DNA of 64,000 nucleotides from an uncultured Candidatus Saccharibacteria bacterium (GCA_964432275.1 CAYSMH010000003.1:6718-70717), one strand, 5' to 3'. Positions 1,803 through 32,731 are shown, numbered from the stretch's first letter. The notes: generated by a model from the sequence alone, not told the origin. Translations and numbers: made by a program.

Positions 1803-1873
1803 CGCGGGGTAGAGAAGAGGTATCTCGTAAGGCTCATAACCTTAAGACCCACGTTCGATTCGTGGCCCCGCAA
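1803..1873 (+). tRNA. tRNA-Met, initiator type (anticodon CAT, C1-A72 mismatch)
   Basis: Cloverleaf folds by eye: acceptor CGCGGGG/CCCCGC(A), anticodon stem TAAGG/CCTTA with loop CTCATAA, T-arm CCACG-TTCGATT-CGTGG. The 5' CGCGGGG and 3' CCCCGCAAC ends mirror the E. coli tRNA-fMet ends. Confidence 0.7.
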
Positions 1874-1882
1874 CAATCAAGC

Positions 1883-1912: not shown

Positions 1913-2063
1913 CTATTGATGCCAATCATAATGGCGCGGACTGGTGGCCGAAGTGAGAACTGCAATTATCGCCCAGTATGAGCAAAACTTGCCGTGATAC
2001 TATCTTCGGCATTCGGAAGCCGAACTGCCGTCATATTCGCCAGAAGCCGTTTTGATCGTATCA

Positions 2064-2095
2064 CAAAAAAATAACCCCTGTAAAAAATACAGGGG
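2064..2095 (-). terminator. Rho-independent terminator for the minus-strand gene 2156..2770
   Basis: Stem CCCCTGTA/TACAGGGG, followed on the minus strand by TTATTTTTTT. Confidence 0.6.
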
Positions 2096-2155
2096 TGAAG
2101 ATTTGTAAAATCTTCAAAAACTTTTTCAATTCAATTTTATACCGAGAGCAAAGTA

Positions 2156-2770
2156 CTAAATTGCAAACATAGCAGCAGGATAGCATAAGTTGAAGTCATT
2201 ACTGGTGATATTAGTGTTAGCATGATCCCACCTATTAGCATTACCGCCACTCCAAGACAGGTAACGGACATAGAGTTCATTACGAGTTTCCTTGTAACAG
2301 CCCCGGTAAATGGTTCCCCAGAAAAGGATCTTTTTTGATTTCCAGTGTTCAGGAATGAATTCAGGGTGTTTCAACAGAAAGTCCAACACATTTGCGTTCA
2401 GTACTTTTTTGCCTCTCAATTCTCCTCGTAATGCCCAGCAATCGATATTGGCAATCTGCTGCTGACGTGCGAGATAGAGTACAACATTTGAAACGTCAAA
2501 CTTGATAGTGCCGCCTTTTTGGTGTTCCTCTAATTTCAAACCGGTTGGAATAAACGGTTCTGCATCGCAGTCAATATCATGTTTAGTACCCTTTATTTCG
2601 TGGGTGCCATGCATTACGCCGAGGACCAATTTCATCAGATTTTCGTCTTTTGAAAAGTCGTCCATGTTTTTTGGTTCCCAACCTGCTTTTGCGGCTGAAA
2701 TTGTAACTTCCCCCATAAGGGTACAGCCAAACTCATTTGATTTTGCCATTGTTTTAGATTTGTGACACAT
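2156..2770 (-). CDS. Hypothetical protein, island-1 cargo (likely true start at MAKSNEF, ~2749)
   Basis: 204-aa ORF, no recognised family. It has its own terminator and lies in an AT-rich island. Confidence 0.5.
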   Translation of the reverse strand: MCHKSKTMAKSNEFGCTLMGEVTISAAKAGWEPKNMDDFSKDENLMKLVLGVMHGTHEIKGTKHDIDCDAEPFIPTGLKLEEHQKGGTIKFDVSNVVLYLARQQQIANIDCWALRGELRGKKVLNANVLDFLLKHPEFIPEHWKSKKILFWGTIYRGCYKETRNELYVRYLSWSGGNANRWDHANTNITSNDFNLCYPAAMFAI

Positions 2771-22229: not shown

Positions 22230-22793
22230 ATGAAAAAAATATCATTATATTTCGCAATTAGCATAGCAATTGTATCCGGGGTTCTTGGTCTTGTTATTGG
22301 GTATGCCCTTACTCCTGAATATAGAACTTCAATGTATGAAAAAAACACAATGGATTTAGGACGTGCTGACCGTACGTTTGATTTGCGTTATATTAACGCA
22401 ATGATTGCGCATCATCGGGGCGCAATGCTACTTGCTGAGCAACTCCAAAAAAATACTGATAGACCTGAACTACAAACGCTCGCAGCTGATATATTGAAAG
22501 GAGAGCCTGTGCTTATTGAAGAGCTTTATACATGGAAAAAAGAGTGGTACGGAGATAGTAGAAAAGTGCGTGATCCTATTGTTGCAAACCTTGGTCCAAA
22601 AGATGAAAAATTTGACCTTAGATTTTTAAACGCAATTATTGCACACCATGAAGCTGGTATTGAGATGACTCAAGAAACACGTATTAAATCAAGTAGGGCT
22701 GAAATTCTTAATAATGCAGATGGAGTAGAAGCATTTCTCAAAGGAGGTATAGAAACACTTAAAGGTCTTAGGTCAACATGGTATTCAATTTAA
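22230..22793 (+). CDS. DUF305 domain protein (two DUF305 repeats), membrane-anchored
   Basis: Two copies of the DxRFLxAMIxHHxGAIxM motif. The family is often linked to copper resistance loci. Confidence 0.6.
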
Positions 22794-22807
22794 CTCATTA
22801 CAAAGAT

Positions 22808-25066
22808 ATGAAAAAAGATGTCTATACAATAAAAGGGATGCACTGTGCAAGTTGTGCTTCCATAATTACGAAAACTGTTTCAAAGGTTCCAGGTGTGCGT
22901 GATATATCGGTGAATTTTGCGAGTGAAAAAGCGAATCTTTCGTTTGATCCGTCTGCTACCTCTATTGAAGTAATGAATACAGAGCTTGAGAAGTTAGGAT
23001 ATATGATTATGTCTACTGGTGAAGAAGAATCTGGAGTACATGATCATGCTAAAACTTCTGACAGCGAACTTGTGCTATTACAACAGAAAACACATTTTGT
23101 ACTACCAATCACTGGCGTAATATTTATACTTATGTTATGGGATATTCTCGCACGGACATTTGTTCGTGTTCCAAATCTTCCTATACCTATGGATCTTTTC
23201 AATATAATAAACATGGTACTTGCAACAATAGTATTGTTTTGGGTTGGAAAACCATTTTTAAAAGGTGTTACAAGATTCCTTCGATATAAGGTTGCTAATA
23301 TGGATACCCTTATTGGTATTGGTACGCTCACTGCATATTTATACAGTGTTGTTATAACGCTATTACCATCTATTCGCGACCTATTGCGCGTACCAGAATT
23401 CACCTATTTTGATGTGACTATTGTCGTGATTGGATTTATTACACTTGGAAAATACTTGGAGGCTCGATCAAAAAAGAAAACAGGGGATGCGATTGAAGCT
23501 CTACTCACGCTTCAGGCAAAAACCGCCCTTATTATTCGTCAGGGAGAAGAAGTTGAAATTCCAATCACTGAAGTGGTGCATGGGGATCTTATTGTTGTAA
23601 AGCCCGCCGGTAGAATCCCAGTTGATGGTGTTGTTGCTGAGGGGTCTTCATATGTGGATGAATCTATGATTACTGGCGAGCCAATTCCTGTGGAAAAAGG
23701 GGAGGGAGATACTGTGGTTGCAGGTACGATGAATACTACAGGGTCATTTACATTCAAGGCAACAAAAGTAGGAGCAGAAACTATGCTTGCGAATATTATC
23801 AAAATGGTAGAAGAGGCGCAGGGAAGTCGTGCGCCAATTCAGGCGCTCGCCGATAAAATCTCAAGCGTGTTTGTTCCTATTGTTCTAGTCATTGCCTTTC
23901 TTTCACTAGTTGCATGGCTAACTATTGGCTCAACCTATCTTGGCTTCTCACAAGCACTTTCACTTGGAATACTTTCGTTTGTAAGTGTGCTCGTAATTGC
24001 GTGTCCATGTGCGCTTGGACTTGCTACGCCGACAGCAATTATCGTTGGGGTCGGTAAAGGGGCAAGGAATGGCATTCTTATCAAAGACGCTGCTACGTTG
24101 CAGAAACTTCACGAAGTTACCACGGTTGTTGTTGATAAGACAGGGACTATTACAAAAGGAAAACCAGAGCTAGTGTCTATAAAAAATCTTTCTGATCGGT
24201 CAGATGAAGAGATTATTGCACTACTTGCTGCGCTTGAGAAAAAATCTGAACATCCTATTGCACATGCAATTGTTTCGTATGCGAAAGAAACAGATATACA
24301 AATTCCTCCAGTTGGATCATTTCAGATTGTAAAAGGTGAAGGTATTCGTGGTTCAATACTCGGAATAGAATATTTTGCTGGTAATATCCGGCTTATGGAA
24401 AACCTCAAGCACGCTATAGACATATCAATGATTGAGGCAGAGACAAAAACTGGAAAAACACCAGTGCTACTTGCTACGAAAGAAAAAATACTTGCAATCG
24501 TTATGGTTGCAGATGCGGTAAAGCCTGAAGCAAAAAATGCTATACAGGAGCTTCATAAGAAAGGAATTAAGGTTTACATGTTAACTGGAGATAATATAAA
24601 TACTGCGCAGTTTATTGCTTCTTCTGTGGGAATAGATGAGGTCATTGCCGAAGTAACACCTGAAGATAAACTCAATACAGTCAAAAAATTACAATCATCG
24701 GGAGAAGTAGTCGCAATGGCTGGAGATGGAGTCAATGACGCTCCAGCTCTCGCTCAAGCAGATGTCGGTATTGCTATGGCAACCGGGACAGATGTTGCTA
24801 TAGAGAGCGCGGGAATCACACTCTTGCACGGTGATATTACAAAACTTGTTAAGGCAATCAATCTTTCAAAGATTACGATGCGTGGGATTAAGCAAAATTT
24901 ATTCTGGGCATTTATATATAATATTGTAGGGATACCACTTGCGGCAGGTGTATTTTATCCACTATTTGGATGGCTGCTCAATCCGATATTTGCAGGGCTT
25001 GCAATGGCATTCTCGAGCGTGTCGGTGGTAGGAAACTCATTGCGGTTAAAAGCTAAAAAACTATAA
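22808..25066 (+). CDS. copA: Copper-translocating P1B-type ATPase CopA with N-terminal HMA domain
   Basis: GMHCASCAS (CxxC HMA), TGEP, CPC ([11 protein letters not shown]), DKTGT and [10 protein letters not shown] motifs. Start placed at [10 protein letters not shown] to avoid overlap with the upstream gene. Confidence 0.9.
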
Positions 25067-25068
25067 GT

Positions 25069-26109
25069 ATGAATAATACAGAAAAACAAACATATACATT
25101 TCATATACACGGTATGCACTGCAAGGCATGTATTCTGCTTACAGAGGGGGAACTGAATGAACTGCCGGAAGTAGAACATGCACACGCTAGTCTTTCGAAA
25201 CATACCGTCACGGTGACAGGTATGTTTGAGGGTAAAACGCAGGAAGAATTAGCAGAGCGGTTTACTGAAGTACTCAAATCTCATGGATATACAGTCTCTA
25301 CTCAAAAACAGAATGCGGTAAAAACAAAACGAACACGCGAGTTTTCGATCGCCATTCCTATAGCTATTGTATTTGCTGTACTATTTGTACTTTTGCAAAA
25401 GATGGGGATTGTAAATCTTGTTGATGCAAGTAATGTGTCGTACGGGACTGCATTTGTGATCGGTATCATAGCCTCACTCTCAACATGTATGGCAGTAGTT
25501 GGTGGACTCGTGCTTTCAATGTCGGCTACATTTGCGAGAGAGGGGGATAAAATTCGTCCACAAATTTTGTTTCAACTAGGACGTCTTATCTCATTCTTTA
25601 TTCTCGGAGGTGTTATTGGTGGAATCGGTTCAGCTTTTGCGCTCAACACAACAGCAACATTTATTCTTGGTATCGTAATCGGCATTGTCATGCTTCTTAT
25701 GGGGTTAAACTTGCTCGATGTTTTCCATTTCACAAAAAGATTGCAGCCGGGCATGCCAAAAATGATTTCGAAGAAAGCATTTTCAGTAAGTAAGCTGACA
25801 CATACGTTTACTCCTTTTCTGGTCGGTATTGCGACGTTCTTCCTTCCGTGCGGCTTTACTCAGTCAATGCAGATATACACTCTTTCCACGGGAACCTTTA
25901 TGAAAGGCGGTCTTACCATGCTTGCATATGCACTTGGTACGCTCCCTGTACTGCTCCTTGTGGGGTTTAGTTCATTTAGTATCAAGAAAAGTTCTCGTGC
26001 AGGAATATTCTTTAAATCTGCAGGATTGATTGTTATACTGTTTGCACTGTTCAATCTCATTAATAGCTTGGCGGTAATTGGTCTTATTCCACCTTTATTT
26101 AATTTATAG
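25069..26109 (+). CDS. HMA-domain fused to CcdA/DsbD-like polytopic membrane protein (putative metal/thiol transporter)
   Basis: N-terminal HGMHCKAC HMA motif. The membrane domain has intramembrane Cys motifs (STCM, LPCGF). Confidence 0.5.
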   Translation: MNNTEKQTYTFHIHGMHCKACILLTEGELNELPEVEHAHASLSKHTVTVTGMFEGKTQEELAERFTEVLKSHGYTVSTQKQNAVKTKRTREFSIAIPIAIVFAVLFVLLQKMGIVNLVDASNVSYGTAFVIGIIASLSTCMAVVGGLVLSMSATFAREGDKIRPQILFQLGRLISFFILGGVIGGIGSAFALNTTATFILGIVIGIVMLLMGLNLLDVFHFTKRLQPGMPKMISKKAFSVSKLTHTFTPFLVGIATFFLPCGFTQSMQIYTLSTGTFMKGGLTMLAYALGTLPVLLLVGFSSFSIKKSSRAGIFFKSAGLIVILFALFNLINSLAVIGLIPPLFNL

Positions 26110-26111
26110 CT

Positions 26112-26501
26112 ATGAAAAAAAATATTCTTGCAATCTCTATAGGTATCGTAATTATTGGGTTCGGAATACTCGTAGCGGTAAATAGTGCGCCAAAAGAAGA
26201 AGAGGTGCTTATAAATGTTGTTACTGTAGTTGATGGAAAGCAAATTATTGATTTACGGGCAAAAGGAGGGTTTACTCCTCGTAGTATTGATGCAAAAGCT
26301 GGAATTCCTACAGTGCTTCGTGTTACTACAAAAGGTACATTTGATTGTTCTTCTTCCGTACGAATTCCATCTCTGAACATATCACAAAATTTGCCACAAA
26401 CAGGTGTTACTGAACTTGATCTCGGGATCCAACAGGCGGGGGTACTAAAGGGTAGCTGTGGAATGGGTATGTATCCTTTTGAAATTAATTTCCAAGCGTA
26501 G
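26112..26501 (+). CDS. Secreted cupredoxin-like small protein (putative copper-binding)
   Basis: Signal anchor, beta-rich ~100-aa domain with Cys/Met cluster (CSSS...GSCGMGMY). Confidence 0.35.
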   Translation: MKKNILAISIGIVIIGFGILVAVNSAPKEEEVLINVVTVVDGKQIIDLRAKGGFTPRSIDAKAGIPTVLRVTTKGTFDCSSSVRIPSLNISQNLPQTGVTELDLGIQQAGVLKGSCGMGMYPFEINFQA

Positions 26502-26540
26502 ATGATTTATAAATTTAATAAGTTAAAATATACTATATCT

Positions 26541-26957
26541 ATGAATATACAAAAAATTGTACTTATAAAATTGAGAATCGTAATGGCACTCATTTTTTTG
26601 TGGGCGTTCTTTGATAAGGTCTTTGGTCTTGGATTCGCTACTAAACCAGAAAATGCATGGATAAACGGAGGTTCACCAACAACAGGGTTTTTATCGTTTG
26701 CAACCAAGGGTCCTTTTGCTGAATTTTTTAAAAGTCTTGCTGGTATACCAATTATCGACTGGCTTTTTATGCTCGGCCTACTTTTTGTAGGAATTACTTT
26801 TCTTTTTAATCGATATGTAAAATGGGGAGCAATCGCAGGTGCAGTAATGATGTTCCTTATGTACCTTGCAGTATTTCCTCCAGAAAATAACCCACTCCTC
26901 GACGAACATATTGTCTATGCACTCGTACTTTTATTCATTGGTTTTATAAAAAAATAA
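26541..26957 (+). CDS. DoxX-like small polytopic membrane protein
   Basis: Three or four TM helices, family-like length. Start taken at MNIQKIVLIKL. Confidence 0.35.
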   Translation: MNIQKIVLIKLRIVMALIFLWAFFDKVFGLGFATKPENAWINGGSPTTGFLSFATKGPFAEFFKSLAGIPIIDWLFMLGLLFVGITFLFNRYVKWGAIAGAVMMFLMYLAVFPPENNPLLDEHIVYALVLLFIGFIKK

Positions 26958-26958
26958 C

Positions 26959-28281
26959 CTAATTACTTAAATATATTTTCTTGTTATTCAGAAATATCTT
27001 CCCTTGCAGGTTGTTGAATATCTCTCGCTTCTCAAATATTGTTCCTTCTTTTAATATAAACTTTGCGTAGTTACGAACGTCGACATCTTCAATTTGTATA
27101 TCGTCTTTAATACCCAAAATGCTACGTTGGAATTTCTTAATTCTCGTTATTTCATCATTAATTTTATCTCTCATACCGACTTTGTTTAAATTCACCTTAT
27201 CAAGAAGGGTAGCAAATTGCTTAATCAAATCCTCTTCATTTAGATACCCACCTTTGCAGTTCCTATCTTTCGACCTCGTACAGCCATAGTACACATGTCG
27301 ATTTACTGTTCCATTCTTAAGCTTTTTAAATTTCTCATCTGCGCAAATTCCTGAATCACATAATCCACATATCATGAGCTTGGTGAATGCAAACTCTTTG
27401 TTTTCAACTCTTAGTACCTGACTTTTCACTTGTGCTTGTACTGCGTCATATAGTTCTTTTGTTATCAGTGCTTCATGTTTTCCTTGATACCAGTTACCGC
27501 TTTTAAGAGGATATTCAAATACTCCATAATAGAATGGATTTTCTAATATGCGATAGATATTTCCTAAACTTATATTCTTGTTTCCTTGTAATGTCTTGAA
27601 GTTCAAATCAAACTTTAACCAGTGGTGCAGCTTTCTTCCAGTCCATTTTTCATATGCAACTTTCTCAAACATCTTCTTTACAATTGGTCCTCGGTCTGGA
27701 TCAATGAGGGTCTCACACTTTCGATCCATTCGCTTTTCTTTCAAGTATCCTGTTGGAGCAGGGGCAGGCCATAATCCCATTTCAACTCGTGTTTTCAGTC
27801 CACGCTTTACATTTATACTTTTATTATCATTCTCAAGCTTTGCTTGCGAACAAAGAATCATCAGGAGGAATTTCTCGTTAGGGGAGTTACGAAACTGCTG
27901 CCCATACGTTCGTATTTCAATCAGCTTTTTCTCATCCATTAAATCAACTACTGATCCTAAATCTCCCGCATTTCTACTCAATCTATCAGGTGCCCAAGTT
28001 AATATGCCTGTATATCTTCCAGATCTGATGTCGCTCAGTAATTCTTTAAATACTGGTCGTTGACCAGAGTCTTTCGCAGAATGAGCCTCTCTCCGAACGT
28101 CTATTATTTCCAACCCATCTCGCTCTGCAATGGCCATCATTTCTTTTACTTGAGAATCAATGGAGAGTGCTTGTTTTTCATCTGATTCAGTTGATTTTCG
28201 AGCATAGAGGCAGTACTTCACCTTTTCTGCTGCTATAAGAGCAGGGAAGCCCGTTTGGGCTGTTTTAGCCAGTATTTCCAT
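26959..28281 (-). CDS. Large serine recombinase (paralog of the one in island 1)
   Basis: YARKS catalytic motif, DRLSRN, recombinase domain and Cys cluster CGLCDSG...YYGCTRS. It is collinear with the 8772..10424 protein. Confidence 0.85.
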   Translation of the reverse strand: MEILAKTAQTGFPALIAAEKVKYCLYARKSTESDEKQALSIDSQVKEMMAIAERDGLEIIDVRREAHSAKDSGQRPVFKELLSDIRSGRYTGILTWAPDRLSRNAGDLGSVVDLMDEKKLIEIRTYGQQFRNSPNEKFLLMILCSQAKLENDNKSINVKRGLKTRVEMGLWPAPAPTGYLKEKRMDRKCETLIDPDRGPIVKKMFEKVAYEKWTGRKLHHWLKFDLNFKTLQGNKNISLGNIYRILENPFYYGVFEYPLKSGNWYQGKHEALITKELYDAVQAQVKSQVLRVENKEFAFTKLMICGLCDSGICADEKFKKLKNGTVNRHVYYGCTRSKDRNCKGGYLNEEDLIKQFATLLDKVNLNKVGMRDKINDEITRIKKFQRSILGIKDDIQIEDVDVRNYAKFILKEGTIFEKREIFNNLQGKIFLNNKKIYLSN

Positions 28282-28403
28282 ATCTATATTAATGTCAGAC
28301 CAGTTGCGGAAGTAAAGCTAGACCATTACTCGGCATCACTTTACAAAATCTGTAAAGCATGCTATAATACGACTAATAAGTTCATTGTAATTTAGCTTGC
28401 GAA

Positions 28404-28453
28404 TGGTCATAGCTACGAGGTTCTGATTTCTCGGAATTTCATAGCTATGACCA
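28404..28453. repeat. Inverted repeat TGGTCATAGCTA-N26-TAGCTATGACCA, candidate serine-recombinase att site
   Basis: Perfect 12-bp arms with a 26-bp spacer, ~120 bp upstream of the recombinase start. Confidence 0.4.
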
Positions 28454-28505
28454 CGAATTGGTTGTAGTTCTGTCCCGGAGTAGGGAAAATTAAAACCATA
28501 ACGAC

Positions 28506-29141
28506 ATGGAAAAAACATTTGCATCTGCGGATCTCACCGCAGGACAACTGAACGCTATTGTAAAAAAGCTTGGCGGTCATGAAGGTGCTTTGAAATTTTT
28601 ACGCGGCGAAACTTCGGTTTCCGAACCTGAAAAAAGCTGGCGTGAGCATGACGGAGTGATTTACTTCACCGTCACTTCCGATGGTGCCACCGGTGCCGAA
28701 TGGATTGCCCGTCTTGAGAAAGGTGGATACCGCGTTGGCGATTACGCCAAGAGCGTTCTACTTTCAAAAGATTTTAAACCTACAAACGGTGTTACAACCG
28801 AAGTTGGAGTGTTGAAGGGTATGCTGTTTGAAGACAATCAACGCATTACCAAAAACATCCGTAAAAATGCCGAAGATCGCAAACTGGAAACACCAAATGC
28901 AGAGATAGCTTGCCTTATCCGTGAAAAATTCACTGATGAAGACATCGAAGCGATGGGTTTATGGTGGATCGTTGCAATGCATGAACCGATCAATGATTCC
29001 GGTGGTGATCCGCGCTTGCTCCTTGCGGACCGTAGTGACGATGGGCGTTGGCTGAACTCGGCGTATGGCATGCCTGACTTCAGGTGGATCCGTGGGAGCG
29101 GGTTCGCGTTTGCTGTTTCGCAAGTTAGTTCTCAAAACTAA
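28506..29141 (+). CDS. DGR target protein (variable C-terminal CLec/FGE-like segment containing the VR)
   Basis: The 3' 128 bp is the VR copy of a downstream TR. The differing codons correspond to AAC/AAT/A-containing codons in the TR. Confidence 0.7.
   Translation: MEKTFASADLTAGQLNAIVKKLGGHEGALKFLRGETSVSEPEKSWREHDGVIYFTVTSDGATGAEWIARLEKGGYRVGDYAKSVLLSKDFKPTNGVTTEVGVLKGMLFEDNQRITKNIRKNAEDRKLETPNAEIACLIREKFTDEDIEAMGLWWIVAMHEPINDSGGDPRLLLADRSDDGRWLNSAYGMPDFRWIRGSGFAFAVSQVSSQN
28996..29123 (+). repeat. DGR variable repeat (VR)
   Basis: 128-bp direct repeat of 29483..29610 at an offset of 487 bp. There are 16 mismatches, and 15 of them are positions where the downstream copy has A. Confidence 0.75.
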
Positions 29142-29482
29142 GACGCTGATCACTTCAGCTCTTTGAATTTAGTCCTTAGCCCTTGTTCCGCTACCATATT
29201 TCTGGTTTGGAATGAGGGCTAATTTTTTTTGCATAAACTTGTATAATGAGTACGGTAATAGGTGTAGTGCGGACGGCAAAAAGATTTATTCTGGGCTTTC
29301 CGCTACCGAATCCAGTATCCATACATCGAGAGTACTTAAGGTCACGGCTTCAGGTAGAGTGGTGTATGCAGAAACTTCAAAAAATGAAGATACTTGGTGT
29401 GAGAGATTAGGGCATTACGATGCCAGATACAATACAACCCTGAGAGTATTCGAGGGGTGGTGATACAGAAGATCTCTTGCAC

Positions 29483-29610
29483 ATTCCGATGGTGATCCGA
29501 ACTTGCTCAACGCGAACCGTAATGACGATGGGCGTTGGCTGAACACGGCGTATGACAAGCCTGACAACAGGTGGAACCGTGGGAACGGGTTCGCGTTTGC
29601 TGTTTCGCAA
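29483..29610 (+). repeat. DGR template repeat (TR), non-coding, adenine-rich AAC codon pattern
   Basis: Same repeat. Adenines occupy the variable positions. The shared 3' block GGGTTCGCGTTTGCTGTTTCGCAA is invariant (IMH-like), followed by a CTCTCCCA/TGGGAGAG hairpin plus T-run. Confidence 0.75.
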
Positions 29611-29635
29611 TTCTTTTCATTTTCTCTCCCAATAC

Positions 29636-29881
29636 TTACTGTTTGGGAGAGTTTTGTTTTGTGAGTTGGCCACTCCAACCGCCTAGCATTCTGCCGGCTT
29701 CATCAAGCTTCACCGAAAGTGCAATATATTTTTTATCGTCAATTGATTTAGTCTCCCAGAGTACAAGTAGTAGTAAGCGTAGAGTGTCAGCTTTTCTAAT
29801 GGCAAGACGCACATATGGGTGCTTTTCCTCCCGTGAGAGAAAGCTTGCGGCAGAAATTGCTTCTATTATTTCGACAAACAA
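29636..29881 (-). CDS. Avd-like (accessory variability determinant) four-helix-bundle protein, N-terminally short, TTG start
   Basis: The C-terminal segment ...LLLLVLWETKSIDDKKYIALSVKLDEAGRMLGGW parallels the Bordetella phage Avd C-terminus (...LAMLRFWLRFLAG...AEVGRILGSWI), a member of the 23S-IVS four-helix-bundle family. Confidence 0.5.
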   Translation of the reverse strand: MFVEIIEAISAASFLSREEKHPYVRLAIRKADTLRLLLLVLWETKSIDDKKYIALSVKLDEAGRMLGGWSGQLTKQNSPKQ

Positions 29882-30145
29882 AGTATCGATGCGTTGACCA
29901 AGAGAAACGGGGAGATGATTTCACGGTCACAAGCTCCGCACTTTAGTGCGCAAACAAAACTTCCGCTCTTTAGGCGGAAGTAGTTTATTTAAAAGTCCGT
30001 CAGCAGCAGCTACCATTACTGGAAGATCAATAAATGGATGGACTGCATGGAAAGATGAGCATGGAATAACGTTAAATGATAATTTAAGACAATAAATATA
30101 GAAATCAAAATTTTACACACAGCTTATCAGGGCTATAATAGAATT

Positions 30146-30535
30146 ATGGATAGGATATCTTCAAAAATAGCACCAATAGCCGGTATTATCATTCTGGTAA
30201 GCTATATATGGATTGCTGTATTTGGACTTCTCCAGACTGCTCATGCTTCAAATAGTCATACGCATTCAGCCTGTCCTTATATGGTTGGCCAGCATTCTAT
30301 TTGCTCCATGGATGTGTTTGACCATCTTCAAGCATGGCAGGCATTCTCTACAGTTACTGTGCCCGTATTAGAGATACTTGCTCTTGCAGTACTTTTATTT
30401 GTCACTGCATGGTTTTTACACGCACCACCACCCCTGTTAGGGCATTTATATACTAAACAAACTTATAGCCAAATACGTGAACCGTTATATCGGCGACTAT
30501 TTTCGCGTGGTATTCTTAACCCAAAAGCACCCTAA
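30146..30535 (+). CDS. Small two-TM membrane protein with Cys/His motif (CPYMVGQHSICSMD)
   Basis: ORF with hydrophobic helices inside a metal-resistance context. Confidence 0.35.
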   Translation: MDRISSKIAPIAGIIILVSYIWIAVFGLLQTAHASNSHTHSACPYMVGQHSICSMDVFDHLQAWQAFSTVTVPVLEILALAVLLFVTAWFLHAPPPLLGHLYTKQTYSQIREPLYRRLFSRGILNPKAP

Positions 30536-30581
30536 TAAGCACTCTGTAATATTTATTATCATTTAACTTAAATTAAAACTT

Positions 30582-30995
30582 ATGGAACAAAATAAAATAG
30601 TAACAGGAGTAATCTGTTTGGTTGCGGGGGTACTTCTCGGGGCAGTTATATTCGGTGGCAAAGGTGATACTGCTCCTGCAATAAGTAATACTAATAATAC
30701 TCATCATGTCATGCCGGATGGTTCTAATATGAACAACAGCATGGATATGGCCTCTATGATGGCAGGTATGAACGCAAATCTTTCAGGAAAGACTGGAGAT
30801 ACGTTTGATCAAGCATTTATCACCGAAATGATTATGCACCACGAAGGGGCAGTAGAGATGGCAGAGCTAGCTTTAACGAATGCTAAACATGCAGAAATTA
30901 AAACACTGGCTAATGCAATTATTTCTGCCCAGAATAGTGAAATTGCTCAGATGAAAACATGGCTTAAAAACTGGTATAAGGTAGAAACACAATAA
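30582..30995 (+). CDS. DUF305 protein with Met/His-rich putative Cu(I)-binding segment
   Basis: DQAFITEMIMHHEGAVEMA motif, preceded by HHVMPDGSNMNNSMDMASMMAGMN. Confidence 0.6.
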   Translation: MEQNKIVTGVICLVAGVLLGAVIFGGKGDTAPAISNTNNTHHVMPDGSNMNNSMDMASMMAGMNANLSGKTGDTFDQAFITEMIMHHEGAVEMAELALTNAKHAEIKTLANAIISAQNSEIAQMKTWLKNWYKVETQ

Positions 30996-30996
30996 T

Positions 30997-31494
30997 ATGA
31001 AAAAAATAAGTTTCGGAAGTTGGATAGGGATACTACTTATAGTATTAATTGGATTTGCTATATGGTGGACACCAAATGCTAAAGAAGCAAAGATTGAGCA
31101 ACAAAAAGAACAGACCAGTCGCGAAGTTGCGTTATTGTGTACAACAGATATGGCAACGCAATATCATATTCATCCCGAGTTACAAATTCTAATAAATGGA
31201 GAAAATAACTCTATTCCAAAAAATCTCGGCATTAAATCAAATTGTATGACCTCAATTCATACACATGATGAAATAGGAGTAATACATGTTGAAGCCCCAG
31301 TACAAAAAGACTTCACACTCGGAGACTTCTTTGCGGTATGGCAAAAGGATTTCTCAAAAAGTAAGATTCTTGATTACGTAGTAGATGAACAACATGAGAT
31401 TTCTGTTACAATTAATGGCGTACCGGTTGATACGTTCGAAAATACTATTCTTGGTGACAAAGATAAAATAGTCATCTCATATAAAACAAAATAA
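30997..31494 (+). CDS. Secreted His-rich hypothetical protein (possible metal-binding partner of the NirK-like protein)
   Basis: Signal anchor, HIHPE and IHTHDEIGVIHVE motifs. The stop overlaps the next gene start. Confidence 0.4.
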   Translation: MKKISFGSWIGILLIVLIGFAIWWTPNAKEAKIEQQKEQTSREVALLCTTDMATQYHIHPELQILINGENNSIPKNLGIKSNCMTSIHTHDEIGVIHVEAPVQKDFTLGDFFAVWQKDFSKSKILDYVVDEQHEISVTINGVPVDTFENTILGDKDKIVISYKTK

Positions 31495-31495
31495 T

Positions 31496-32731
31496 ATGTT
31501 TACTTATATACTATTTGAAATAATCGCAGCCCTCGTTGGAGGTATTGCCATTATTATAATTCTCGTACAATTGTATAAGAATAAGAGTGTAAAAAATTTC
31601 TTCAAAAAGAAAGTCGTTATAATACCCCTAGTATTGTTGGTCACTGCTTTCTTTGTTGGACTACTTGCGAACCGAACGTATCCACCACATTTTGCAATGC
31701 CAGCATGGATGAATTCTCATGCACCAGGCGGCGTTCCAGCATCAATTCCATTCCGTAATATCGTTGAATTCTTCACCTATAAAAACCGATTTGAAAAAGT
31801 GGCTGATATAGGTGCAGATCCGAATGCGGTCCCAGAACTTGCAGAGCCAGATCATGATAATGTGGTGAAGATAAGTTTAACGGCAAAAGAAGTCATCTCA
31901 GAAATTGCTCCAGGTATTTACTATAACTATTGGACATTCAATAAGCAGGTTCCAGGTCCGATGCTTCGGGTTAGAGAAGGGGATACTGTCGAGCTTACAC
32001 TCAGCAATGACCCGAGCAGTTTGCATGATCATAGTATTGATCTGCATGCAGTAAATGGTCCGGGCGGAGGGGCGGAATTCACACATCTTAAACCGGGAGA
32101 AACAAAAACCTTCCGATGGAAAGCTATGAATCCTGGATTGTATATTTATCACTGTGCGATGCCGAATGTGAGCACGCACAATTCTCATGGACAATATGGA
32201 CTCATATTGGTTGAACCAAAAGAAGGACTGCCTCCTGTTGATAAAGAGTTCTATGTGGTGCAAGGAGAACTTTACACAAATGGGGAAATTGGAAAGAAAG
32301 GTCTTGTCCCTTTTAATTCAAAAGATCTCATTGCGGGAAACCCAAATTACGTACTATTCAACGGTCGTGTAGAGTCTACACCTCGTATGGCAGCGGAAGT
32401 TGGTGATAAGGTTAGAATCTATGTTGGAAATGGCGGAGTAAATCTTATCTCATCGTTCCATGTCATAGGTGAAATCTTTGACACTGTCTATCCAGAAGGC
32501 GCAATAGGAAAAGAATCAGCAAAACTCCAGAACGTTCAGACAACAGCTGTTCTTCCTGGTGGTTCATCAATTGTAGAATTCACAGTTGATTATCCTGGCA
32601 AATACCTACTTGTCGATCATGCACTAGCACGATTAAATAAAGGTGCATGGGCAGTACTGGAAGTTACGGGTGAGAAAAACCCTGAAATTATAGAATCGGT
32701 AGGTGATACCAATCACGATCATACTCACTAA
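31496..32731 (+). CDS. Copper-containing nitrite reductase (NirK)-like two-domain multicopper oxidase, N-terminal two-TM anchor
   Basis: HDHSIDLHAVNGPGGG (NirK H-x4-H type-1/type-2 Cu motif), YHCAMPNVSTH (His-Cys...His) and SSFHVIGEIFD (NirK C-domain signature). Confidence 0.6.
   Translation: MFTYILFEIIAALVGGIAIIIILVQLYKNKSVKNFFKKKVVIIPLVLLVTAFFVGLLANRTYPPHFAMPAWMNSHAPGGVPASIPFRNIVEFFTYKNRFEKVADIGADPNAVPELAEPDHDNVVKISLTAKEVISEIAPGIYYNYWTFNKQVPGPMLRVREGDTVELTLSNDPSSLHDHSIDLHAVNGPGGGAEFTHLKPGETKTFRWKAMNPGLYIYHCAMPNVSTHNSHGQYGLILVEPKEGLPPVDKEFYVVQGELYTNGEIGKKGLVPFNSKDLIAGNPNYVLFNGRVESTPRMAAEVGDKVRIYVGNGGVNLISSFHVIGEIFDTVYPEGAIGKESAKLQNVQTTAVLPGGSSIVEFTVDYPGKYLLVDHALARLNKGAWAVLEVTGEKNPEIIESVGDTNHDHTH

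Follow-up and report, generated by a model that had tools for sequence, protein, structure and literature searches.

Results

The Target Gene and Its TR/VR Pair

The window, by which we mean the whole 64-kb stretch of DNA that was analyzed, contains the target gene of a diversity-generating retroelement (DGR) at positions 28506-29141 (plus strand). The gene codes for a 211-aa protein that is full length for its family. A protein search returned 1899 homologues, which belong to Patescibacteria wherever the source organism is named; a Pfam search detected no domain in the protein, and no relatives were found in the viral contigs searched. The closest relatives on long contigs are located in two loci, L007 and L009, whose target proteins are 86% identical to that of the window. 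Outside of the variable repeat (VR), the gene has a dN/dS of 0.078 in comparison with L007. An AF2 model of the target has a mean pLDDT of 67.8 with values below 50 in the VR part, where it is too weak for a fold assignment. Searching the PDB with this model using Foldseek gave a best E-value of 0.25, which is not significant, with C-type lectins recurring among the non-significant matches.

The VR forms the 3′ end of the target open reading frame (28996-29123, plus strand, codons 164-206) and is matched over 128 nt by a template repeat (TR) located further downstream (29483-29610, plus strand). The two sequences differ at 15 positions, 14 of which fall on adenines of the TR, the remaining one being a C>T change, and 29 of the 30 TR adenines are placed in codon positions 1 or 2. 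This TR is 92.9% identical to that of L007, and no further copy of it exists in the 64-kb window. An earlier reading of the sequence alone (hereafter, the sequence-only reading) had proposed that the VR was once diversified, and the TR/VR pair bears this out.

In both L007 and L009, the target gene (plus strand) is followed by the TR, after which come avd, encoding 130 aa on the minus strand, and a plus-strand gene for a reverse transcriptase (RT) of 329 aa with a YADD motif. This arrangement recurs in every one of the 16 cassette-bearing metagenome loci and, among the matches listed, in ~90 loci of species-representative genomes. The distance from the leader motif (see below) to avd is 300-420 nt in intact relatives, and that to the RT is 680-820 nt.

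A Structured Leader RNA Precedes the TR

Alignments of the relatives reveal a fixed order of elements from the VR to avd: a terminator, a -10-like box, a leader, the TR, and a hairpin followed by TTTTGTTTT. Each of them is present in the window. A hairpin with the arms GCCCTTGTTCC and GGAATGAGGGC and an adjoining T-run (29179-29229, plus strand) probably terminates transcription of the target gene; aligned relatives have a hairpin and T-run at the same place, with stems that differ in sequence. It is followed by the -10-like box TGTATAAT (29240-29247, plus strand), a putative promoter of a leader-TR RNA, at a position where two alignments of relatives show the consensus TGnTAnAAT. A generic promoter scan missed this box because there is no match to a -35 element.

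Directly 5′ of the TR, we located a structured leader RNA of ~227 nt with nine helices (29253-29479, plus strand). Its consensus structure, calculated with RNAalifold from 76 sequences, comprises 56 pairs, 41 of which show compensatory changes. The fraction of leader cells that are paired amounts to 96.5%; the shuffles give 82.4% and the slid controls 37-47%. The covariation score is 0.52 versus 0.24, and none of 500 shuffles attained the observed value. The window leader maintains 54 of the 56 consensus pairs (intact loci average 52.6) and is matched by the leader HMM with an E-value of 6.6e-61 in nhmmer. We found no family for this RNA in Rfam 15, and 16 relatives give no match either. A match of the window to the Rfam family RT-7 (19.2 bits versus a gathering score of 116.8, E-value 0.043) is absent from the 16 relatives and was judged to be due to chance.

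The TR is followed by a second terminator-like hairpin (29624-29660, plus strand), CTCTCCCAA...TTGGGAGAG plus TTTTGTTTT, which holds the avd stop codon in its loop. A CTCTCC...GGAGAG hairpin with a T-run occurs after the TR in 110 of 119 related loci among the matches listed, its outer stem being conserved and its inner stem covarying. The leader-TR RNA would be expected to start downstream of the -10-like box and to end at this hairpin, and the leader may contribute to the recruitment of an RT-Avd complex. Judged from its sequence, the template-RNA unit of the window (promoter-like box, leader, TR, and terminator) is intact and apparently in working order.

The avd Gene Is Truncated and the RT Is Absent

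On the minus strand, we found an avd open reading frame at 29636-29881, which encodes 81 aa from a TTG start. It matches the Pfam family bAvd with its C-terminal part only (profile positions 65-104 of 107, E-value 2e-4, below the curated cut-off), whereas the Avd of a full-length relative covers profile positions 14-104. Homology to relatives extends the avd remnant to 29636-29905 (minus strand), corresponding to codons 42-130 and the stop codon. In a tblastn comparison, this remnant and residues 42-130 of the 130-aa Avd in L009 share 94% identity, and an HMM made from 73 clade Avds has its single match in the 64-kb window at 29920-29639 (E-value 1.8e-47). Full-length Avd has about 120-130 aa and forms a four-helix bundle; the window encodes residues 42-130 alone, and the native start, the promoter, and the helix-1 region are gone. 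The missing part amounts to 41 residues by homology or 49 by the open reading frame call, which makes the loss of ~45 N-terminal residues described in the sequence-only reading a fair estimate. A sequence search of the PDB with a full-length Avd returned no match.

The sequence-only reading had further pointed to the location of avd on the opposite strand as an anomaly. The strand was assigned correctly, but the orientation does not represent a rearrangement because it corresponds to the published B3 layout and is shared by all intact relatives that were fetched. As in B3 cassettes, avd is located directly downstream of the TR on the opposite strand, with position and strand being identical to those in ~90 intact relatives among the matches listed. 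The RT that belongs to this layout has been deleted at the window locus and is hence not visible there.

No Y[AVILMCT]DD motif occurs in any of the six frames of the whole 64 kb. A tblastn search of the window with the RT of the closest relative gave a best E-value of 0.7, and when all stop-to-stop open reading frames of 30 aa or more were searched with an HMM made from 74 clade RTs, the best E-value was 0.56. The motif scan, tblastn, and the clade HMM also uncovered no RT fragments in the 64 kb. It had been claimed that no RT is present in cis or anywhere in this stretch, and our searches support this. As the cassette is without a DGR-clade RT, we class the locus as a relic and not as a functional member.

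The Deletion Junction Is Located inside avd

Homology to intact cassettes ends at 29905/29906, inside avd and at Avd residue 42. Using blastn, positions 28360-29905 of the window align with 7855-9374 of L007 at 81.4% identity, and homology stops thereafter; the last bases common to both loci in a base-level alignment are ...GACCAAGAGA. The window lacks the first 41 avd codons, the RT, and the intergenic region between the two genes, and we found no repeats flanking the breakpoint. A separately assembled Logan contig (L001, from SRR25168019) corresponds to window positions 22846-30491 with one mismatch in 7646 nt and contains the same junction, which is therefore real and not an assembly chimera.

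A filler of 72 nt (29907-29978) occupies the right side of the junction. It resembles nothing else in the window and nothing in the fetched loci (~170 related loci). Next to it lies a 3′ fragment of a DUF4357-domain gene (29979-30095, plus strand), which matches PF14267 at profile positions 23-54 of 54 (E-value 6e-12, 45.7 bits, above the curated cut-off). We considered a single deletion that fused avd to the DUF4357 gene and rejected it because DUF4357 homology begins only at ~29979. No match was obtained for the 21 codons that precede it in the open frame, so there must be at least two breakpoints. The region to the right of the junction is a patchwork, and a promoter-like site for the next gene is found there as well.

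Two hairpins between 29890 and 30000 had been proposed as RT-recruitment structures or DGR remnants. The first of these, CTTCCGC-N7-GCGGAAG, is real (29960-29980), can be extended to 29959-29981, and scores terminator-like on both strands; its left arm is contributed by the filler. The second lies within the filler (29937-29950) and has a stem of 5 bp, formed by 29937-29941 and 29946-29950, rather than the 6 bp that had been described. The fold of the 29890-30000 interval is weakly better than that of shuffled sequences (z-scores of -1.5 for the plus strand and -2.5 for the minus strand). Both hairpins are located to the right of the junction and thus outside the DGR homology, and they have no counterpart in ~170 related loci, which is why we rejected them both as RT-recruitment elements and as remnants of a DGR. 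In the minus-strand direction, the first hairpin (29981-29959) and its T-run lie immediately upstream of the avd stump and would further limit expression of the stump by read-through.

RT-less Loci in Related Genomes and a Second Relic in the Window

We took a census of related loci by scanning one genome per species for the leader motif CCGAANCYRGTATCC-N45-75-GAAGMTACTTRG, which occurs once in the window. The scan yielded at least 120 loci, all from different assemblies and nearly all labelled as Patescibacteria or related candidate groups. Among the matches listed, 89 loci from other species were evaluable, that is, they had at least 1.8 kb of downstream sequence free of N-runs. Both RT and Avd are encoded in 70 of these 89 loci, and 19 (~20%) are without one or both. 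The 19 loci include two with atypical layouts (L155 and L178), and most of them have lost avd and RT wholly. Stumps are retained in L093, which has an intact avd, and in L117 and L173, which have C-terminal pieces of the RT; a truncated avd encoding residues 69-129 is present in L037, a locus from the metagenome set outside the census. L132 and L131, which looked RT-less or RT-truncated, were dropped as relics because an N-run takes the place of the RT in each. The VR/TR pairs of the relics range from clean ones to pairs with six non-adenine mismatches, or the VR or TR has been lost, and pairing in the leader erodes in step. The RT-less loci form a decay series, with the window at its fresh end.

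A second and older DGR relic is located at 1996-2770 (minus strand) of the window. Its target gene (2156-2770) belongs to another family and is followed by a terminator-like hairpin, a promoter-like box, and part of a leader. Only the 5′ third of this leader is present (2068-1996); the leader HMM detected it in nhmmer (E-value 6e-4, HMM positions 3-76). The open reading frame at 2156-2770 encodes 204 aa that are 36-52% identical to targets found immediately ahead of the leader in over 20 loci, and its C-terminal motif is common to the VRs and TRs of these loci. The second relic has no TR, avd, or RT, and the 3′ end of its open reading frame is not repeated in the window. At least two clade cassettes must therefore once have been present in this part of the genome, and neither has an RT today.

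The Loss Looks Recent

We compared the avd stump with the corresponding 89 codons of L007 and found 48 synonymous and 7 nonsynonymous differences (pS 0.77, dN 0.035). Nearly all of this divergence built up under purifying selection, and the truncation is therefore young relative to the split of the window and L007 lineages. The state of the template-RNA unit, with 54 of 56 leader pairs kept, also points to a recent loss. The loss of the RT thus looks evolutionarily recent, and this explains why the remaining parts still look functional. We rejected non-adenine VR/TR mismatches as a decay clock: since 0-3 of them are present in intact cassettes too, the single one in the window is uninformative with respect to age.

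The VR is nucleotide-identical in five Logan contigs from five sequencing runs, with the exact target protein on all five, and a search of 5.8 billion protein clusters contained no VR variant on the target scaffold of the window. Such a variant can be seen in an intact relative, where P0002 and P0005 differ at 13 positions inside the VR and at none outside. Our sample for the window lineage consists of six identical observations; in the intact relative, P0005 is unchanged on 12 contigs, with a single variant. The constancy of the VR is weakly consistent with its being frozen.

Discussion

Our findings probably describe a recently decayed Patescibacteria DGR of the B3 type, that is, a defective copy of an element of known kind. 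Architecture B3, TR-(avd)-RT, makes up 90% of the CPR set of Wu et al. 2018 (PMC5758913), and Roux et al. 2021 (PMC8144416) placed Patescibacteria DGRs in clade 2, with targets that have no known domains. The window shares with these elements the order and orientation of its target gene, TR, and avd, the host phylum, a VR at the C terminus of a small, domain-less target, and mismatches specific to adenines, and it is 81% identical at the nucleotide level to an intact B3-type cassette in GCA_964517945.1. Unlike in working B3 DGRs, the RT and the first 41 avd codons have been deleted, leaving a relic. A decaying cassette was one of two alternatives offered in the sequence-only reading, and it is favored by the precise junction at 29905/29906 inside avd and by the foreign sequence to its right.

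We propose that a deletion took out the enzymatic module of the cassette, extending from about codon 42 inside avd across the entire RT gene. In intact relatives, a target gene ending in the VR and its terminator is followed by a separate small unit, made up of a promoter-like box, leader, TR, and terminator hairpin, that would produce the template RNA, whereas avd (minus strand) and RT (plus strand) would be transcribed divergently from a short common intergenic region. If these elements work like the Bordetella phage DGR, an RT-Avd complex would copy the TR RNA into adenine-mutagenized cDNA, which would then replace the VR. The window has retained the target, the VR, and the whole template-RNA unit in what looks like working order, and it has lost the avd promoter, start codon, and first 41 codons together with the RT. 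As the start of avd and the RT are gone, mutagenic homing should no longer be able to run from this locus, and the VR would represent a frozen snapshot of past diversification.

The experimental prototype of these elements is the BPP-1 DGR, with the order mtd-avd-TR-brt. It has in common with the window a TR/VR pair with adenine mutagenesis, an Avd-family protein, and an identical 3′ segment that ends both TR and VR, in the position of the IMH. In BPP-1, avd lies upstream and on the same strand, whereas in the window it is located on the minus strand, downstream of the TR. A structured RNA of 140 nt (Sp; Rfam RT-10 motif) is found 3′ of the BPP-1 TR, between TR and brt (PMC5737381; bioRxiv 10.1101/2023.10.23.563531). 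The window, in contrast, has a conserved structured RNA 5′ of the TR, with a terminator-like hairpin directly after the TR, and its leader shows no sequence or Rfam similarity to the BPP-1 RNA. In a lineage with a 5′ leader, the Bordetella scheme, in which the spacer comes after the TR, cannot apply as drawn. A more speculative reading of our data is that the structured RNA partner, which is absent from Rfam, is located 5′ of the TR in this large clade of DGRs and not 3′ as in Bordetella. The covarying leader provides a concrete RNA with which recruitment of RT-Avd can be tested.

DGRs with remote target genes resemble the window in having a VR-bearing target with no RT adjoining it. Such remote targets are without a TR, leader, or avd of their own, whereas both a TR and an avd stump are present at the window locus, and we therefore interpret it as a decayed local cassette rather than a remote target.

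The second alternative in the sequence-only reading, an RT encoded elsewhere that acts in trans, appears unlikely to us. The leader-TR RNA would then still be expressed and used by a clade RT-Avd from another place in the genome, and the VR would still be diversified. A locus served in this way would be expected to look much like the window, whose template-RNA unit is intact from the promoter-like box through the leader, with 54 of 56 pairs, and the TR to the terminator, and whose VR/TR mismatches that fall on adenines in 14 of 15 cases are as clean as those of active cassettes. The high conservation of the leader across the clade means that a paralogous RT-Avd might recognize the window leader; two complete clade cassettes do coexist in one genome (L017), the window itself had at least two cassettes, and plasmid-borne avd, TR, and brt are cited in PMC5758913 as acting in trans in the Bordetella system. 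However, the 64 kb contain neither an RT nor a second avd, the second cassette of the window is itself dead and has lost its TR, and no VR variant of the target scaffold has been seen. The recent date of the deletion accounts for the intactness of the remaining parts without trans activity. If RT-less target-leader-TR modules were generally maintained as 'satellite' loci, with a template-RNA gene used in trans by the RT-Avd of another cassette, this would explain both the intact RNA unit and the ~20% of leader-bearing loci that are RT-less among the matches listed. We regard this broader idea as quite doubtful, and the decay gradient in other RT-less loci, with up to six non-adenine mismatches and loss of VR or TR, speaks against general maintenance.

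An assembly or binning artefact, in which the RT really lies next to avd and the contig joins unrelated pieces at 29906, is highly improbable. The TR/VR repeat does break short-read assemblies, as seen in the Logan contigs L002-L005, all of which end at or before 29385, upstream of the TR; yet the junction is located within unique avd sequence and not at the repeat, and L001 reads across it with a single mismatch. Another mechanism that we give very little credence is the programmed removal of the avd-RT module by a neighboring recombinase, which would excise or invert it as a reversible on/off switch. A large serine recombinase indeed abuts the cassette as its left neighbor (26959-28281, minus strand; Resolvase PF00239, E-value 2e-20; Recombinase PF07508, E-value 7e-13; Zn_ribbon_recom PF13408, E-value 3e-5), and homologues with 57-65% identity have the same position and orientation beside the cassettes in L055 and L103. 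A switch of this kind is difficult to reconcile with a breakpoint that wrecks the avd coding sequence, is not flanked by repeats, and is followed on its right by a patchwork of unrelated fragments. In addition, the relics in other genomes break elsewhere, and most of them have no recombinase nearby. Recent decay of a local B3-type cassette thus remains our preferred explanation.

For annotation, this means that the truncated Avd should be treated as a pseudogene and the variable protein encoded by the target as fixed. DGR finders that are centered on the RT are blind to RT-less loci, which make up about one-fifth of the related loci among the matches listed; any tally of DGR targets or of DGR loss is biased as a result.

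Homologues of the target also occur outside of DGRs. The target homologue in L012 adjoins a copper ATPase, and we rejected a copper-gene synteny with the window because the two ATPases share only 38% identity. Roughly half of the homologues of the target are found without any cassette, and true cassette-less homologues are present in L011, L012, and about a dozen more loci.

Structured RNAs flanking the template repeat

The template repeat (TR) of the relic is directly preceded on its 5' side by a structured RNA of ~227 nt that folds into nine helices and is conserved in the Patescibacteria clade of diversity-generating retroelements (DGRs). This leader RNA spans positions 29253-29479 of the window and is found at the equivalent place in the related loci L007-L178. 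Covariation is strong, with compensatory changes in 41 of the 56 base pairs, and the RNA is present in at least 120 species genomes; it has no family in Rfam. In the Bordetella prototype DGR the structured RNA lies 3' of the TR, whereas in the Patescibacteria clade it lies 5'.

A hairpin follows the TR (29624-29660) and is shared by 110 of 119 related loci. Its outer stem (CTCTCC/GGAGAG) and its tail, TTTTGTTTT, are conserved in sequence, while the inner stem covaries and the loop holds the avd stop codon. The hairpin is more conserved than a plain terminator requires.

Intact and relic cassettes of the clade

We compared two target-protein variants, P0002 and P0005, from a relative of L007. 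They differ at 13 residues, all of them inside the variable repeat. The pattern appears to be direct evidence for activity of the intact sister cassette in nature.

Two complete cassettes of the clade stand in tandem on the metagenome contig L017 (5001-7464 and 9983-11619), each with its own target, leader-TR, avd and reverse transcriptase (RT). At two other loci, the leader motif was found 3' of homologues of the window's target gene (L019, 6840-6930; L041, 6771-6863). TR, avd and RT were undetected by tblastn at either locus, and both are probably additional relics.

The window itself contains an older second relic of the same clade, on the reverse strand (1996-2770). Its target gene (2156-2770, reverse strand) encodes 204 amino acids and belongs to a family different from that of the main target. 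It is followed on the same strand by a terminator-like hairpin, a promoter-like box and a leader of which only the 5' third remains (2068-1996); the relic is without TR, avd or RT. The next feature is a tRNA-Met (1803-1874, forward strand).

Genomic surroundings of the main locus

Upstream of the main target gene and on the opposite strand lies a large serine recombinase (26959-28281, reverse strand). Homologues with 57-65% identity occupy the equivalent position beside cassettes in L055 (1197-2507) and L103 (630-1940), where they appear interrupted and the cassette targets differ; L125 and L132 contain pieces of the recombinase. The DGR cassette may travel within a recombinase-borne island.

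Recombinase and DGR relic are together enclosed by a copper-resistance cluster (22230-32731), with DUF305, a CopA-type ATPase, HMA-DsbD_2, cupredoxin and DoxX on the left side, and a 129-aa membrane ORF, DUF305, a 165-aa ORF and a multicopper oxidase on the right. The stop codons of DoxX and the recombinase are 1 nt apart.

Between a promoter-like site of the target gene (28340-28368) and the target start, we noted a 23-nt inverted repeat (28404-28453; 83% complementary, 4-nt spacer). It falls inside a stretch conserved with L007, the closest intact cassette, and may represent an operator.
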